From Planctomycetota bacterium (GTDB taxonomy: Bacteria; Planctomycetota; UBA11346): DNA of 64,000 nt. The DNA is taken from NCBI GenBank assembly GCA_038231435.1, contig JBBRLJ010000028.1:13765-77764 (forward strand), read 5' to 3'. This document shows, piece after piece, positions 8,679 through 17,285 of the stretch. Each line of letters opens with the position of its first letter. The stretch's first letter is position 1. The notes under the pieces are model-generated. The model was not told the origin of the DNA. It saw only the letters and a program-made list of their open reading frames with translations, and did not search any database. The translations under genes were made by a program, and so were the position numbers.

Positions 8679-9719
8679 CTAACCGACCGCCGCTTCCCCA
8701 TCTGTCGGATGCACTCGTGAGCGGTCAACGATCCATTTCACCCCGCGCCGCACCGCTTCCTTCGCTCGCGCCAGGGCACAGCCGATCGCCGACCCTCCGA
8801 AGCGGCCACCCATCGACATCGCGTCCCTCCATCGCCCGAGATCGAGTTCCAGGCGGGCAAGGATCGGCGACAGGTACGTCGGGATCGCTCCTCGTTTCCC
8901 GATCCGCACGATCCGCCCCGTCTGGTCGACCAATTCCAGGTAGTCGTCGGTCGAGAGTGGGCACGGGCACAGCCGGCTCGTCTTGTCGGACCAGGGCGTG
9001 CACGCCTCGAGCGGAGCCAGCCATGATTGGACCAGCGGTGGATCTGCTGGCGTCGGGATCGCTCCGCTATCGACGAGACGCGCGCCGGCCTTCGCCATCT
9101 GACGCTCCTCGATGCGTCGCTGAATGCTCGTCAACTCGCTCGATTCGGGACGATCGGCTTGCCGCGCTCGGATCAGATTGAGATCCACGTATGCCATGCA
9201 GGCGATCACCGCCGCCTGATCGAGCAGCGACACCGACGTGAAGCGCCCTTCCCAGAAATGGCCGGTGCAACGGTCCTCGCGATTCGCCCGCCGGGCGATG
9301 CGCTCCTTCATCACCTTCATGAACCACGACAGACTCGACAGGCGGGCCCGATGCTCAGAGACCCATTCCGCATCCGCCGCCTTGCCGTCGAGCCAGCGCA
9401 GATCCGGTGGCTTCGGATTCCCGTCGTCGTCCTTCAGCGGGAACATGACCGCCCAGCGCTCGGCCACCTCGCGACCGGACCACCTCGCGGCGCGGTCGGG
9501 ATGGACCTTCATCACCAGGTGGAAGTGATTCGACATCACCGCGTAGGCGAAGATATCGACGGCGAATACCGTCGCCTGCTCGCGAACGGCTGTTTCGATC
9601 CAATCTCGACGATGCGCCCATTGATCACTGCAGAGGAAGGAGCGACGGACGCAGCGGCTGATGACGTGATAGCAGCCAGGTTGCGTCTGGTCGATCAGAT
9701 GCGAGCGGGCAGTCGTCAT
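8679..9719 (-). mobile_element. REP-associated tyrosine (HUH/Y1) transposase, RAYT-like
   Basis: YHVISRCVRR, YAVMSNHFHLV (HUH), GHFWEGRF, ACMAYVDLN. Confidence 0.9.
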
Positions 9720-9763
9720 GAGCACGGGATACGGGATGGATTATGAGATTGGCGTGAGAACAC

Positions 9764-9781
9764 ATGCCTGTCCTAGGATTT
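9764..9781. repeat. Inverted copy of the RAYT flank motif (ATGCCTGTCCTAGGATTT)
   Basis: Its reverse complement matches AAATCCCAGGACAGACAT at 16 of 18 positions. Confidence 0.7.
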
Positions 9782-10730
9782 GTGTGCCGAGCGATTCATC
9801 GCCGTTCAGGACGGGCAGGTGAAGGTGACGACGATCCAGAAGTACCACTGCCACATTGGCTACTGGTTCACGGTCATCACACCGGGGTCGTCGCCGGCGA
9901 GCCTGACAGCCGAGAGCTTGCAGCTGGCCAGGAATGCACTGGTCAAGCGCATGTCGCCCGTGACGGCGAACTGCGCGCTCTCGACCCTCAAGCGGATCCT
10001 GAACTTCGCCTTCTTGGAGGGCTGGCTGACCTCGTCACCGTGGAAGCGGGTAAAGAGCCTCCCAGAGCCCGACTTCACGTCGAGCTGGTGGACGCCGGAA
10101 GAGGTGGCGGTGGCCCTGCGAGTCGCAGGGCAAAACCAACACCAGCCCACGGCCACCCTGATGATCGTGCTCGGCTGCATGCTGGGGCTGCGCAAGGATG
10201 AGATGGTCAACCTCCGCTGGCAGGACCTGCTGCTGGACCGGCAGGACGAGGCGACTGGAGAGCCACGGCCGGTCTGCCATATCCGCTGTGATGCGGAGTG
10301 GCGGCCCAAGTCGGGGAAGGCGCGAGACCTCCCGATCCCACCGCAGGCACGTGGCATCCTGCTTCCGCACCGCAAGGCTTCCGGCTACGTCCTAGTGGAG
10401 GAGCGGCGGGTGGCGAAGCGGGGCGGCACCAAACGGGTGTACCGATATGACCCGGACCGGGTTTGGGATCGGATCCGGTCCAAGTGCATCGCTGCAGGCG
10501 CGAAGCGCATCCGTTTCCACGACATGCGGCATTCGTATGCGTCCATCTTGCTCGACCAAGGCTTCAGTGCCGAGAAGGTCGCCCGATGGCTCGGGCACTC
10601 GGACACGCGCATGGTCTTCGGGGTCTATGGGCATCTGCTCGCATACGACGAGCAGATTGAGGGCGTAAAGTTCACGCGCAGCGCGCAGCCTGACGACAAG
10701 CATCTCCTGCGCTTCCCGACTCGCAGCTGA
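9780..10730 (+). pseudogene. Tyrosine recombinase/phage-type integrase, probably 5'-truncated
   Basis: GLRKDE (R), KSGK (K), FHDMRHSYAS (HxxR), LGHS, VY; no ribosome-binding site, and the frame starts at the RAYT flank repeat; points toward the 3' end of tRNA-Asp. Confidence 0.75.
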
Positions 10731-10806
10731 TACAACTTGCCATGAACGACGTCGTTTGCCGTCCGGAGATCCCGGGCGGCGAACGCGTTTTCTTTACCTA
10801 TGAGGC

Positions 10807-10870
10807 GTTCGCCCGGATGGGCGAACAAAGGGCGAAAATGGGCGAACAACGCTGTTAACTTGTTCGCCCA
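10807..10870. repeat. Clustered TGGGCGAACAA repeats (putative integrase arm-type sites)
   Basis: Direct copies at 10818, 10830 (variant) and 10839; inverted copies at 10860 and, partially, 10807. Confidence 0.65.
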
Positions 10871-10871
10871 C

Positions 10872-10911
10872 AAAAAAGAGGTCGCGGTAACTTGCGCTAC
10901 CGCGACCCTTT
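10872..10911 (-). terminator. Rho-independent terminator of the tRNA operon
   Basis: GGTCGCGGTA/TACCGCGACC stem followed by a T-run on the minus strand. Confidence 0.8.
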
Positions 10912-10914
10912 AGA

Positions 10915-10991
10915 TGGCGACCTGGATGGGACTTGAACCCACGACCTCCGCCGTGACAAGGCGGCGCTCTAACCAACTGAGCTACCAGGCC
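10915..10991 (-). tRNA. tRNA-Asp(GTC)
   Basis: Cloverleaf with anticodon arm CCGCC-TTGTCAC-GGCGG, GGTTCAAGTCC T-arm and 3' CCA. Confidence 0.97.
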
Positions 10992-11033
10992 ATGATGTGA
11001 AAGAGACCTGAGCCGATCCGAATGTCGACGCCC

Positions 11034-11110
11034 TGGTAGGCGATGAGGGATTCGAACCCCCGACATCCTCCGTGTAAAGGAGGCGCTCTAGCCGACTGAG
11101 CTAATCGCCC
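11034..11110 (-). tRNA. tRNA-Val(TAC)
   Basis: Anticodon arm CCTCC-TTTACAC-GGAGG, GGTTCGAATCC and 3' CCA. Confidence 0.97.
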
Positions 11111-11424: not shown

Positions 11425-13374
11425 GTGGCTGATGCCGTCATCCACATCGCCGATGGCGAGTCGCACTGCCGCATCGTGGATCCGGTCAGCGGGACTCTGC
11501 AAGTCCCCTTGCGTGAGATCAGCCAGCAGGGCGCCCTGGTCGACACGCGGATGCAGTTCGAGGCCCAGGCGGCGGTCGACCTCACAGTGGTGCTCAAGGG
11601 CCTCTCACCGCGGCAGTTCTTCGCCAACGTCGCTTTCAGCGACAACGCCGGACTCCACCTGCAGTGGATGCCCATCGATTCTGGGGAACAGGCGCGCCTC
11701 CACTCGCTGCTCGAGGCTTACAAGACCTTGCATCCGCCTCAGGCCGCGGCATCCACCGAGGCCGCCGCTCCCGCCCGCGAGAAGACCAACACCCGCCGCG
11801 TGATCAGGCCCAAGGGCTTGGCAGCCGATTCCTCGAGCGCGATCATGCCGTTCACCGACGTATCGACGCCCCCGTCGACGCCGGTGCAGTCTTCAACCCA
11901 GTCCTCGTCGCAGCTGGGCTCGGGCGAGCGTGTGCGCACCCGCCGGATCGTGCGCCCGTCCAACCAGAGCCTGCCGCGGGTTGACGACGCGCCGGCCGAT
12001 GATGACGCGACAGTCAAGACGACGCCCGCGAAGGGAGCCAACGGCGACAATACCCCGTCCACCCTGTCGATTTTCCGCGAGGAGACCGGCGCCCAGCGCG
12101 TGCTGGACGAGGATTCCGGCGACCACCTCGCGGATACCGAACCCAGCACCGGCAAGGCCGGGGTCGTGGGCGCCGACGGGCGCATGGACATCGGCGCCTC
12201 GATCCGCAACAAGGCCAAGTCCATCCGCGCTTCCGAGCTCGCGGCGCGCCACGACCGCGTGCGCGTGCTCAACATGGGCACGATCAAGCAGCTCATCACC
12301 GAGGCGGTGGAAGAGGCCTCGGCGCACCTGACGCGCTCGCTCGGCGCCGAAGACCGCAAGCGCCTGCTCGAGGAAGCTGAAGAGAACTTCAAAGAACGCC
12401 TGAAGATGTTCGAGGCGGAAAAGCTCACCGCCGAGGTGAAGGCCAAGCAGCTGGTCGATCAGCTGCGCACCGCGCAGGATCTGCTCGAGAGCGAGCGCAA
12501 GCGCACGGTCAAGGCCGACCAGTTCACGGTGTCGGCCGCCGGCCTCGACGAGATCGAGCTCAAGTTCAAGCGCCTGCTCGACCATTCCATCGCCGAGGGC
12601 CGCGTCATCCCGACTCTCGAGGAAGAGCTGCGTCGCGTCATCGCGACGGTGTTCGACCAGGAGCGCCAGCGCATCCGCGAGCAGGAGATGCAGGCGCAGA
12701 ACGAGAAGATCCAGCTGCTCGAGACCAAGATCAAACGCCTCGCGAGCTCGCTCGACGAAACCGAGCGCCAGCGCGACGAGATGCAGGAGTGGGCCCAGAC
12801 GCTCGAGGCATCCGGCGGCGGCGCGTTGCGCAACATCATGTCCGCGGGCATACGCGACGATGGCAACAAGAAGCGCAAGATGGCGCTGATGAAGGAGATC
12901 CTCGACATCAACCGCGCGATGCGCAAAGAACTCGGCATCGAGACCGCCCCGGTCGACGAGGAGACCGAAGAGGCGATCAAGAAGGTCGAGGCCGCATCCA
13001 AGCTCACTCCCGAGGAGGAAGCGGCGATCCGCGAGCAGCGCAAGCGCATCGACCCGCTGCCCGAAGCCAAGAAGCCCGACGCCGAGATGCTCAATGTCAT
13101 GGCCGAGTCGGGCCATGCGCCGGCGGCTTCCGCCAATCCCGATGACGAGCCCTTCGAGGCGGTCGGCACGGTCAAGGCGGCGGCAGGCGTGAAGAAGCTG
13201 AGCGCCGAAGGTGCCGAAGAGGTTCCCGAGGGCGCCGAGATCGACCCCGACGACATGGAGTGGACGCCCGCTGCCAAGGCCGGTCCGGTGACCGGCAACG
13301 ATTCGGGGATCAAGAAGATCGCCACCACCACCGACTTCAAACTGCCACCCTTGCAGAAGAAGGGTAAGAAATGA
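11425..13374 (+). CDS. Hypothetical protein: PilZ-like N-terminus, disordered linker, long coiled coil, acidic tail
   Basis: 649-aa ORF with strong GC3 bias; REISQQGA resembles the PilZ DxSxxG motif; E/K/R-rich heptads in the central third. Confidence 0.75.
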   Translation: MADAVIHIADGESHCRIVDPVSGTLQVPLREISQQGALVDTRMQFEAQAAVDLTVVLKGLSPRQFFANVAFSDNAGLHLQWMPIDSGEQARLHSLLEAYKTLHPPQAAASTEAAAPAREKTNTRRVIRPKGLAADSSSAIMPFTDVSTPPSTPVQSSTQSSSQLGSGERVRTRRIVRPSNQSLPRVDDAPADDDATVKTTPAKGANGDNTPSTLSIFREETGAQRVLDEDSGDHLADTEPSTGKAGVVGADGRMDIGASIRNKAKSIRASELAARHDRVRVLNMGTIKQLITEAVEEASAHLTRSLGAEDRKRLLEEAEENFKERLKMFEAEKLTAEVKAKQLVDQLRTAQDLLESERKRTVKADQFTVSAAGLDEIELKFKRLLDHSIAEGRVIPTLEEELRRVIATVFDQERQRIREQEMQAQNEKIQLLETKIKRLASSLDETERQRDEMQEWAQTLEASGGGALRNIMSAGIRDDGNKKRKMALMKEILDINRAMRKELGIETAPVDEETEEAIKKVEAASKLTPEEEAAIREQRKRIDPLPEAKKPDAEMLNVMAESGHAPAASANPDDEPFEAVGTVKAAAGVKKLSAEGAEEVPEGAEIDPDDMEWTPAAKAGPVTGNDSGIKKIATTTDFKLPPLQKKGKK

Positions 13375-13511
13375 TGTCCCTGTTCGCGTTGGAGAGGCGA
13401 AACCAACCGCCGTGACACTCACCCGACTCCCTGGTCGTCGATACCTCCCGGTTTCCCCCTTCTCGTCCAAACCCCAACACCAACCATCCCTTTACATTCC
13501 AGGAGCTTTCC

Positions 13512-14561
13512 ATGTCTGAAATCGTCTATCTCGGTATCGATCTCGGTACCAGCCGCACCTCGATCACCTCGTCCACTGGCGTGCGCGAGACCGTATGGTC
13601 GTACGTCGGTTACCCGAAGGACCACGTCGCCAAGAAGAAGATGGGCGGCCGCGACATCATCTACGGCAAGGAGGCCCTCGAGAATCGCCTCGCGCTGAAC
13701 CTGTTCCGCCCGCTCGCCGGCGGTTCGATCAAGCACAAGGGCGCCAAGGACTCGGGCGAGACCAAGCGCGCGGTCAAGGACCTGCTCGAGCACACCGTCT
13801 CGCTCGCCAAGTCGGCGAAGGACGCGACCATCTACGCGGTCATCGGCGCTCCCGCCGAAGCCAGCGTCGAAGGCAAGGCCACCATCCTCGAAGCCGCCTC
13901 GAACTGCATCGATAGCGTGATCGTCTGCTCGGAACCGTTCGCGGTCGCCTACGGCCTGGACTTCCTCGACGATACCCTGGTGATCGACATCGGCGCGGGC
14001 ACCACCGACCTCTGCCGCGTCCACGGCACCATGCCCGGACCGGATGACCAGCGCACCCACGAGATCGCTGGCGACGCCATCGATCAACTGCTGGCCAACC
14101 TGATCAAGGAGAAGCACCCCGACGCGCAGTTCTCCATCAACATGGTGCGCCAGATCAAGGAGCGTCACGCCTCGGTCAGCCCCAAGATGGACGAGGTCAT
14201 CGAGGTGCTCCCGGTCGCCGGCAAGCCGACCAAGTTCGATCTGACCGAGCTGGTCTACAAGGCCTGCTACAGCCTGGTGCCCCCGACGGTCAAGGCCCTG
14301 CAAGACCTGGTCGCCACCTACGACCCTGAATTCCAGGCCAAGATGCGTAACAATGTGCTGCTCGGCGGCGGCGGATCGCAGATCAAGTCGCTCGGCCTCG
14401 CCATCGAGAAGGCGCTCGACGAGTACGGCGGCGGCAAGGTCAAGACCGTCGAGGAACCGCAGTACGCTGGTTCGAACGGCGCGCTCAAGATTGCGCTCGA
14501 TATGCCCGAGCAGTTCTGGAAAGAGTTCAAGTCGCAGCGCGGAGCCGCCGCCGCCGGCTGA
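13512..14561 (+). CDS. mamK: MamK-like actin-family ATPase
   Basis: GIDLGTS, VGYPKD, VIGAPAEAS, SEPFAVAYGLD, DIGAGTTD, GTMPGPDDQ, AGKP, LLGGGGSQI, GALKIA..P.QFW match MamK as I recall it, better than MreB; strong AGGAG ribosome-binding site. Confidence 0.85.
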   Translation: MSEIVYLGIDLGTSRTSITSSTGVRETVWSYVGYPKDHVAKKKMGGRDIIYGKEALENRLALNLFRPLAGGSIKHKGAKDSGETKRAVKDLLEHTVSLAKSAKDATIYAVIGAPAEASVEGKATILEAASNCIDSVIVCSEPFAVAYGLDFLDDTLVIDIGAGTTDLCRVHGTMPGPDDQRTHEIAGDAIDQLLANLIKEKHPDAQFSINMVRQIKERHASVSPKMDEVIEVLPVAGKPTKFDLTELVYKACYSLVPPTVKALQDLVATYDPEFQAKMRNNVLLGGGGSQIKSLGLAIEKALDEYGGGKVKTVEEPQYAGSNGALKIALDMPEQFWKEFKSQRGAAAAG

Positions 14562-14574
14562 ACTGGCAGATGTT

Positions 14575-14622
14575 GTAAAACACAGCAACCCCGCGCGCGA
14601 GCGCGGGGTTGCTGTGTTTTAC
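14575..14622. terminator. Perfect 22-bp hairpin terminator
   Basis: GTAAAACACAGCAACCCCGCGC-GCGA-GCGCGGGGTTGCTGTGTTTTAC. Confidence 0.85.
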
Positions 14623-14975: not shown

Positions 14976-15860
14976 CTACTTTGCGGCGGGTGCTGGCTGC
15001 GGAGTCGCGGGTGCGACGGTCGGGGCCGGCGCGGGAACGGGAGCAGGAGCGGCCGCCGTGGCGGGCGCGGCAGCGGACGGGACCGCGATGGGAGCTTGAG
15101 GTTCGGCGCCTGTCTGAGCGGCGGGGGGCGCCGCGATCGAGGCTGGCGGGGCGTTCTTCTGCGCTGCGGCCTCGGCCTGCTGGCGCTTGAGTGTCCAATA
15201 CATGGTGCGCGCGACGTTGAGCAGCTCGGTGGCGCCGGCATCGCTGCGGCCGATCAGCGGCTCGAGCTTGGCCATGGCTTCGTCGGGCTTGCCCGACTTG
15301 GTCAGGGTGCGCGCGGCGCCGAGTGTTGCCTCTAGCTGCTGGCTGAGGAATCGGCCGCCGGCGCTCTCGACCGCGGCGTAGTCCTTCGCGGCAGCCTCAA
15401 GATCGTTGAGCTGGTACTCGGCTCCGGCGAGCGTCAGGCGCGCGGCATACTTGAGCTCCTGGTCGGGAGTCTTGTCCGCCAGTTGCACCGCCTTCTGCGC
15501 TGCCTCCTTGGCCCCCGGACCGTCGTCCTTACTGAAACGATTCTGCGCGACCTCGATGTAGGCGCGGGCGCGCCAATAGTCGGCGGTCGCGGCGTCCTCG
15601 GCGAGTTCCTTCATGGCTATCGCACGGCTGTCCTGATCGGACTTCTCGAGCGCGAGATTGAAAGCGGTGGACGAGGCCGCATCAGGCCGCTCGACCGCCC
15701 AATGGCGCACGACCTGGGCGACCACGATCACCACCACCAGCACGAGTACGTAGATCCACCAGCGGCGCTTGATGCCCTGGGCGAAGGTGTCGAGGCGATC
15801 GTAGATCGGATCCGAGTAGCTGGAGGAGGGACCGGCTTCGGTGAAGGGAGTCTGGGCCAT
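14976..15860 (-). CDS. Membrane-anchored TPR protein (YfgM-like)
   Basis: N-terminal TM (WWIYVLVLVVVIVVA), helical TPR-like repeats, Pro/Ala tail. Confidence 0.7.
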   Translation of the reverse strand: MAQTPFTEAGPSSSYSDPIYDRLDTFAQGIKRRWWIYVLVLVVVIVVAQVVRHWAVERPDAASSTAFNLALEKSDQDSRAIAMKELAEDAATADYWRARAYIEVAQNRFSKDDGPGAKEAAQKAVQLADKTPDQELKYAARLTLAGAEYQLNDLEAAAKDYAAVESAGGRFLSQQLEATLGAARTLTKSGKPDEAMAKLEPLIGRSDAGATELLNVARTMYWTLKRQQAEAAAQKNAPPASIAAPPAAQTGAEPQAPIAVPSAAAPATAAAPAPVPAPAPTVAPATPQPAPAAK

Positions 15861-15909
15861 GGTGCTGTGCTCGTTCGTGGCGCGCGGCTGGTTCGAAGTC
15901 GTAGGCCGA

Positions 15910-16485
15910 TCACCGCGCCGGTGGCTCTGGCGCGGTGGCGCCCGGCGCATCCAGCTGGGAGGCTGGAGCGGCCGGGGTGGGCCGGAGGTGGAAACGGATG
16001 GTAGTGAGGCCTCCGCTACGTCCAGCCTCGATGAACAGGTCCTCGGGGCCCTTGCGCCAGTGGCCGCGAGCGAGCTCGCCCATGCGCTCCCACCCGAGCG
16101 GGGGCAGTTCGGAGTCGTAGCGAGCCAGCACCGCCGAGCCCGGATCGGGACGAGCGCCCTGGCGCTCGATCATCGACACCTCGAAACGCCTCACCGAGCC
16201 TCCGGCAAGCGATACCGCGAGCTGGTCCTCACCAGGGATCAGCTGGTAACCGGCGACCGGGAACAGCGGGATGTCCGGGAAGTGCTCGGGGTGGAAGGCG
16301 GGGGGGTGGTAGAGCTGAGAGGGCGAGGGCGCGCGTTCTTCGCCACCGCATCCGCCGAGGGCCAGGACCGCGGCCAGAACCGACATCGTCGCGGTGAAGG
16401 AAGCGGCGGACAGGCCGGACGGGCGCAGGCTGCCGCGCGGCCCGGGCCAGCATCGGGGGAGGGCCCCCCTACCGGACAACGTCAT
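15910..16485 (-). CDS. Putative lipoprotein
   Basis: Lipobox-like LALGGC; ATGA overlap with the FHA gene stop. Confidence 0.6.
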   Translation of the reverse strand: MTLSGRGALPRCWPGPRGSLRPSGLSAASFTATMSVLAAVLALGGCGGEERAPSPSQLYHPPAFHPEHFPDIPLFPVAGYQLIPGEDQLAVSLAGGSVRRFEVSMIERQGARPDPGSAVLARYDSELPPLGWERMGELARGHWRKGPEDLFIEAGRSGGLTTIRFHLRPTPAAPASQLDAPGATAPEPPAR

Positions 16486-17156
16486 GCCTGCTTGTAGGTG
16501 AAGCTGTGGCCAGCAATGGTGATGATGTCTCCGACCTTGAGGTCGTGGGACGAGATCTTCTGGCCATTGACGCGCACCGAGCGGAAGCCGCCGGACGAGG
16601 TGACGCGATGGGTTTCTCCCGCGCGCACGATCTTCGCCTGGATCGGCTTCACCAGGAAGGCCTTGCAGGGGATGTCCGCGCCGGACTTGCCGATCGAGGT
16701 CTCCTCGCGGATCAGCGGCACCACCATCTCGCGTCCACCCTGCATCAGGCTCAGGCCCATGCGCTTGGTGGACATGACCTTGGCGAGGGCCGCCTGGTCG
16801 ACGAACATGGTCATCTCGCCGCCCATGCCGGCCTTCTTCTTGCCGCCGGCGCCTTCCGATTCGGCCTGGCCGTGCTGGTCGAAGAGCAGGCTGTGCTTGC
16901 CGAGGACGATGCGATCCGCGTGTTTCAGCGTGTGGCGTTTGATCTTCTGACCACCGACGAACGTGCCATTGTTCGATCCGCCGTCGACCACGACCCAGTC
17001 GTCGTTCTCCTTGACGATCGTGCAGTGGTGACGAGATACGCCGAGGTTGTCCACCACGATCTCGCAATCCATGGCCCGGCCGATTTTGATCTCATCCTTC
17101 ACAAGGGTATGTTCGGACTCGACGTTCGAACCGAACATAACACTGATCTTGGCCAT
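16482..17156 (-). CDS. Double FHA-domain protein
   Basis: IGRAMDCEIVVDNLGVSRHH, GSNNGTFV; second, degenerate FHA (IGKS...VRVNG..LKVGD). Confidence 0.9.
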   Translation of the reverse strand: MAKISVMFGSNVESEHTLVKDEIKIGRAMDCEIVVDNLGVSRHHCTIVKENDDWVVVDGGSNNGTFVGGQKIKRHTLKHADRIVLGKHSLLFDQHGQAESEGAGGKKKAGMGGEMTMFVDQAALAKVMSTKRMGLSLMQGGREMVVPLIREETSIGKSGADIPCKAFLVKPIQAKIVRAGETHRVTSSGGFRSVRVNGQKISSHDLKVGDIITIAGHSFTYKQA

Positions 17157-17285
17157 GATCCGGACTCCTGACGGCTGTGACCATAGATGGCTGCTTGACG
17201 GGGTCAACGCAAGGCCTTGCATCCAACCCGGGGGGTCGTGGACGCCCTTGCGTAACACCGAAACAGGTGTCATGGCGGGACGCCG

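Follow-up and report, generated by a model that had tools for sequence, protein, structure and literature searches.

Besides MreB, Saltatorellota strains encode a MamK-like actin named saltatorellin; when produced as a fusion in E. coli or M. gryphiswaldense, it assembles into filaments (10.1101/817700). As described for Saltatorellus ferox Poly30 (10.1101/817700, PMC11032199), saltatorellin resembles the actin encoded at 13512..14561 (+) of the window, i.e., the whole 64,000-nucleotide stretch of planctomycete DNA analyzed here: both are MamK-like second actins beside MreB, and both hosts are non-magnetic planctomycetes without FtsZ (in the present genome, ftsZ was searched for and not found). 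The preliminary description of the window proposed an undescribed filament, but this name had already been given to a second, MamK-like actin found in non-magnetic planctomycetes and able to form filaments in E. coli. No description of the upstream partner or of the amidase link presented below was found in a literature search whose scope excluded most subscription papers and bioRxiv supplements, and the main text of the saltatorellin paper (10.1101/817700, apart from its supplements) contains none of the words 'operon', 'upstream', 'MamJ' and 'coiled'.

The MamK-MamJ pair (PDB IDs: 5jyg, 5ljv, 5ljw) provides the best PDB match and likewise has an adaptor gene directly upstream of the actin; according to the alignment, the window protein also has a loop at the MamK cross-strand position. 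Magnetosome-type MamKs differ, however, in their moderate identity to it (~41%), their separate clade, their association with mam genes, and upstream genes that lack the helix score discussed below. BeeR (PMC11929497; PDB ID: 8r2n), as described, is another MamK relative from non-magnetic PVC bacteria, but its N-terminal tail of 30-50 residues is missing from the window actin, it belongs to a separate clade, and none of five BeeR-like loci has the helix. Bbp from Ca. Electrothrix gigas is a MamK-like actin encoded outside magnetosome clusters together with a hypothetical second gene; compared by its description only, it differs in being reported mostly from Desulfobacterota and Gammaproteobacteria (PMC10580974). 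In ParM-ParR and the cyanobacterial CorMR / FcmBC systems, the actin is accompanied by a partner that binds it through a terminal peptide; CorR ties the filament to the membrane, and the CorMR pair controls shape (10.1101/2025.06.27.661541, PMC12645912). As reported there, these systems use a ParM-derived actin family and a ParR fold, whereas the window partner combines a PilZ fold with a coiled coil.

The window actin (ATG start, 349 aa) begins 5 residues ahead of the first strand. Its earlier assignment to MamK-type rather than MreB-type actins holds: all internal motifs quoted in support are found in the open reading frame (VGYPKD at 32-37, SEPF..YGLD at 140-150, GTMPGPDDQ at 172-180, and AGKP at 236-239), and the C-terminal motif given as P..W is present in kind, although its actual spacing is P...W (PEQFW). 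The nucleotide motifs DLGTS, SEPF, DIGAGT, and GGGGSQ are intact. The protein scores 391.7 bits with the NCBIfam model of magnetosome MamK (NF040964, cut-off at least 400), 213.6 with that of BeeR (NF053558, at least 530, to be combined with a disordered N-terminal tail), and 57.5 with that of MreB (293), and thus remains below all three. In the PDB, three MamK sequences match at E ~1e-75 (best 5jyg, E 6e-76), followed by BeeR 8r2n (E 1e-44), with no MreB match at E<=0.001.

High expression, as the preliminary description suggested, is probable from codon bias, the ribosome-binding site, and a hairpin. The ribosome-binding site AGGAG (13501..13505, +) lies 6 nt before the ATG. With a simple ORF caller, the codon bias of the actin gene (ENC 29.0) falls in the lowest 1.5% among 2667 predicted genes, and its self-trained CAI is at the 97.6th percentile (mreB, 98.6). 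The terminator ascribed to the gene corresponds to a 22-bp hairpin at 14575..14622 (-46.2 kcal/mol, z -7.9; 0 of 200 shuffles equally stable), although a terminator scan of the window did not list it. Situated between convergent genes and flanked on both sides by A/U runs, the hairpin is likely a bidirectional terminator common to the actin and the convergent TPR-like gene. One weak sigma-70-like match falls within the partner gene. Among the sequencing runs listed, none is for RNA.

In three trees (quick or FastTree, without bootstrap), the window actin belongs to clade A, which has a long stem and a support of 100 and takes in verrucomicrobial copies (74% identity) as well as a single contig from a viral collection. 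This clade adjoins clade B, and groups that hold both have support of 90 in two trees and 98 in the third. Magnetosome MamK (support 98-100), BeeR-like proteins, and MreB all lie apart from both, and the product of the source genome's true mreB falls outside. The comparison with MamK and MreB called for earlier places the protein not within MreB but in clade A, beside clade B. As an AU test of clade A joined with magnetosome MamK did not reject this grouping (p 0.07), the deep branching order of the clades is tentative. The cloning primer of saltatorellin (10.1101/817700) implies the C-terminus YWEQLK, which 23 of 120 clade B proteins share but none of the 120 closest relatives of the window actin; no protein in the collection has the published saltatorellin N-terminus. 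Compared through this primer-implied C-terminus, the window actin would differ from saltatorellin in its membership of clade A and in having no N-terminal extension. Since this C-terminus points to clade B, whose members are 54-55% identical to the window actin, the latter is probably a saltatorellin-type actin of a sister group. Some loci in the collection (L020, L029, L007, and L009) are labeled Akkermansia muciniphila or Kuenenia, probably loosely: they are near-identical to, or group with, uncultured Verrucomicrobia or Planctomycetota loci.

Strong matches to the MamK model occur in 111 of 301 Planctomycetota genomes, mostly on an all-or-none basis per family, and in 31 of the 36 genomes of the source genome's family. 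The nearest named loci come from Planctomycetota MAGs (80-96% identity), as expected from the planctomycete host that the preliminary description deduced. The MamK cut-off is passed by 74 of the 301 genomes and the MamB cut-off by none; the NCBIfam MamK model is therefore not specific, and 'MamK family' calls overstate magnetotaxis. Several MamK-like actins from the representative library (P0391-P0396, P0400-P0406, P0409, and P0417) carry N-terminal extensions of 190-900 residues, most of which begin with a coiled coil that is conserved and leads into a long, disordered linker; the extensions match no Pfam family. The docking motif considered below was absent from the 15 extensions inspected, and among the long actin fusions of the 50% representatives the module was likewise absent, with one weak match (E 0.009) in 150 proteins.

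The window actin gene is not an orphan but the second gene of a conserved pair. A survey of gene neighborhoods revealed a partner, overlooked in the preliminary description, at 11425..13374 (+; GTG start, 649 aa), which ends 137 nt before the actin. Of 47 genome loci, 41 have a homologue of it next to the actin; in the remaining six, the contig extends less than 400 nt upstream. The partner comprises a PilZ-fold domain, a disordered linker with two TRRxxRP repeats, a helical core, a docking module, and an acidic tail, with no transmembrane segment along its 649 residues (highest 19-residue hydropathy 0.9). Residues 1-103 (11425..11733, +) reach 22.2 bits with Pfam PilZ (cut-off 22.5) and are modeled by AlphaFold2 at pLDDT 92; the top Foldseek matches are PilZ domains (among them Alg44, PDB ID: 4rt0, E 2e-5, TM 0.75), and the region thus has the PilZ barrel fold. 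In c-di-GMP-binding PilZ domains, an RxxxR motif precedes the barrel and is combined with D/NxSxxG. No RxxxR is found ahead of the partner's domain, and the motif occurs near the start, unaligned, in five of 32 homologous rows; in place of the second motif, the partner has EISQQG, which its homologues do not conserve. The helical, coiled-coil core (residues 244-510; 12154..12954, +) is conserved in the alignment and all-helical in the model (pLDDT 68.9, pTM 0.28). It matches no Pfam or NCBIfam family, a Pfam scan of 21 partner-region proteins gave no family over the cut-off, and the best score in an ESM Atlas search with the core was 0.86, below the mark of 0.9.

The surroundings of the pair show some further features. 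The TRRxxRP repeats match two of the 3631 genes of the source genome. Convergent genes at 14976-17270 (-) encode an FHA protein, a small membrane protein or lipoprotein, and a TPR-like protein, and are common to 8-10 loci; as a speculation, the repeats could serve as phosphothreonine sites for the FHA domain. An IS200-like transposase and a tyrosine integrase beside tRNA-Asp and tRNA-Val (8679-11110) suggest that an integrated element has its edge shortly upstream of the pair. In family f43, a Walker A ATPase lies directly upstream of the partner (L097:10351-11118, L131:6695-7468); it is absent beside the window pair.

Partners of more distant actins retain just residues 413-504, the docking module (12661..12936, +), and still more distant ones just its last helix, the predicted actin-docking amphipathic helix with the conserved Asn496 (residues 485-500; 12877..12924, +). 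A profile of this helix (16 columns) was built from 60 PVC partners (59 planctomycete-type and one verrucomicrobial), and the best adjacent same-strand ORF was scored at loci with at least 900 nt upstream. A score of at least 10 is reached at 84 of 89 non-redundant PVC loci, including all 42 of clade A, at 25 of the 30 PVC loci outside the training set, and at 41 of 58 metagenome loci, the other 17 scoring lower. The background amounts to 53 of 11,356 other ORFs and 41 of 3631 source-genome genes, among which the window partner, itself in the training set, ranks first (39.0, the next 20.4). None of five BeeR-like and none of five magnetosome-type loci attains this score. The loci that miss it include all three of family f53, in which the actin has no partner neighbor and, in five of five genomes, no clear module elsewhere (best E 0.004, partial matches), and loci L110 and L125 likewise have no helix-bearing neighbor. 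A helix encoded by the gene between mamE and mamK at L138 resembles it by eye but scores -1.2, and MamJ is therefore not taken to share it. In families f21 and f60 (L051, L076, L077, L084, and L115), the partner helix is sometimes repeated, and several of these loci have, by sequence reading, a resolvase-like gene directly downstream of the actin. A module search of longer proteins yielded 141 matches; the 120 listed are nearly all unnamed or hypothetical.

According to structure prediction, the partner helix docks on the actin. Complex models of the actin with the module score 0.80 (runs 0.79, 0.80, and 0.80), the best of three controls 0.00, against a mark that 116 of 157 solved complexes and two of 215 mismatched pairs reach and that is rough for the alignments used here. 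At least 56% of the contacts agree between runs, with partner pLDDT of at least 59. The score expresses model confidence, and reaching the mark may reflect actin-helix complexes already solved. In the model, the lowest-error contacts would join module positions 72-87, with Asn84 corresponding to Asn496 of the partner, to actin residues 137-139, 147-152, and 327-339, within a predicted binding site of residues 137-139, 147-153, and 325-339. This site is presumably the cleft separating subdomains IA and IIA, used by ParR on ParM and by WH2 motifs. Interface conservation does not single out the partner, since magnetosome MamK and family f53 retain most residues of the predicted interface as well.

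The helix recurs on unrelated proteins beside related actins. An amidase lies directly upstream of the actin in 46 of 72 metagenome loci (Pfam Amidase_3 in six of six scanned), and the named members of the amidase-linked actin clade belong to Nitrospira and Acidobacteriota. Leaving out seven N-terminally cut sequences, 30 of the 39 amidases with an intact N-terminus score at least 10, the helix being an N-terminal segment that in most precedes a hydrophobic stretch. Control amidases with no actin nearby, drawn from Planctomycetota and not from matched taxa, reach this score in two of 30 cases, both inside the enzyme domain; the source genome itself gave no Amidase_3 match. In verrucomicrobial loci, two module-bearing genes flank the actin, and one such partner has FimV_core over the cut-off, a transmembrane segment, and then the module. 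The helix is also present on PAS-coiled-coil partners (L193, L206). Three contigs from a viral collection, of 50, 274, and 114 kb and labeled viral by collection membership only, encode the actin with a module-bearing partner of 101-161 aa (L218:4113-6041, L219:4694-6005, and L220:2926-5996). Loci that are related do not count as independent, and a helix this short and amphipathic may have converged on one groove. It is likely a reusable tag for hooking proteins onto the filament, and the range of helix-bearing domains provides candidate outputs of the latter. A broader reading is tentative: non-magnetosome MamK-family actins of several phyla and some phages might share one portable 16-residue helix, a bacterial counterpart of WH2-type tags, that has been attached to adaptors with a PilZ fold and a coiled coil, to wall anchors of the FimV type, to PAS sensors, and to amidases anchored in the membrane. 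The family's general role would then be that of an envelope-linked cytoskeleton, guided by adaptors and distinct from MreB and FtsZ. If so, it could drive shape change or division in FtsZ-less planctomycetes.

For the window pair, the preferred reading, to which we assign a probability of about one half, is a two-gene unit in which a saltatorellin-type, dynamic, ATP-driven filament is tied to envelope or cell-pole machinery by the upstream partner, docking through its helix. The abundant filament would be held and tuned by the adaptor helix; if the site is the cleft that ParR uses on ParM, binding may favor filament ends or monomers, so that it would both anchor the filament and adjust its turnover. 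The partner probably oligomerizes through its coiled coil, while its PilZ-fold domain, lacking RxxxR, might bind a protein rather than c-di-GMP. The adaptor's other end would sit on envelope or pole machinery, as other lineages suggest; the window partner itself has no membrane segment, and its envelope role is extrapolated from them. The source genome (5.2 Mb, 87.6% complete) has a single copy of the window actin, the true mreB on another contig, mreC, and five PilT-family genes over the cut-off; ftsZ was not found in it by a search that detected 13 of 14 controls. In such a cell, with MreB and no detectable FtsZ, the likely job could be local wall or pole remodeling (shape change, division, or pilus placement). 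The pair thereby bears on the shaping and division of FtsZ-less planctomycetes and on the role of saltatorellin, and the conserved partner, whose single defined helix has a predicted site on the actin, lends itself to direct biochemical testing.

Positioning of organelles, suggested in the preliminary description, has no direct support, and what the docking helix is fused to in other loci points rather to the envelope and the pole. A MamJ-like role, in which the partner would tether internal cargo (a vesicle, granule, microcompartment, or chemosensory array) to a treadmilling filament, appears rather unlikely. The gene order is that of mamJ-mamK, MamJ-like adaptors are described as diverging past recognition (PMC10653835), the partner is soluble with acidic and disordered parts, and the PAS-domain coiled-coil partners fit such a role. 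Yet no cargo genes were recognized among the scanned neighbors common to several loci, the nameable fused domains are envelope-related or sensory, and, in verified magnetosome loci, the helix scores of the genes preceding mamK are -1.2 and 2.1.

That the partner purely regulates polymer dynamics, by capping, sequestering, or depolymerizing and with no tether, is unlikely. The ParR C-terminal peptide is reported to clash with the next ParM subunit (10.1101/2025.06.27.661541), minimal partners have 101-130 aa (L219, L220, and L092), and the helix repeats seen at L051 would suit a regulator; however, the attachment of the helix to amidases anchored in the membrane and to FimV domains reads more easily as tethering. 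A ParMR-like DNA segregation system is very unlikely: an actin with an adaptor bearing a terminal helix reproduces the ParMR layout, the pair is present on the three viral-collection contigs, and integrase and tRNA genes lie upstream of it in the window, but a search of 72,556 plasmids gave no match, the actin's presence in 31 of 36 genomes of its family and the downstream genes shared between loci argue against such a role, and no DNA-binding domain was found in the partner.

Displacement of an ordinary magnetosome mamK from its own cluster, which the MamK score barely below the cut-off, the incomplete genome, and the AU test would allow, is highly improbable and largely refuted by the separate clade of magnetosome MamKs, the failure of MamB to pass in any of the 301 genomes, 111 of which carry this actin type, and the magnetosome gene searches. 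None of 11 other scanned window proteins is a Mam, MreC/D, or Par protein, in line with the preliminary description. The genome search it proposed covered mamB, M, I, E, O, and P, with mamA represented by a 77-residue fragment: MamB, MamM, MamI, and the magnetochrome domain gave nothing over the cut-off in the 87.6% complete source genome, nor were MamM and MamI found in three relatives (the MamI and magnetochrome searches had no positive control). In a verified magnetosome cluster (L139), MamI, MamM, and MamN are over the cut-off, while MamE, O, and P are best-named so yet under it. Five of the 11 proteins of this locus have no match in the source genome, and the others match generic HtrA, ParA, CDF, and PDZ genes or the window actin (41%).

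P0431, a 768-aa protein of the representative library, joins a full FtsZ to a MamK-family actin, both over the cut-off; it may be a genuine fusion or result from a frameshift or a chimeric assembly. In the magnetosome cluster at L139:3360-5782, mamE and mamK are separated by a gene of the ParA family and an acidic gene of 554 residues.
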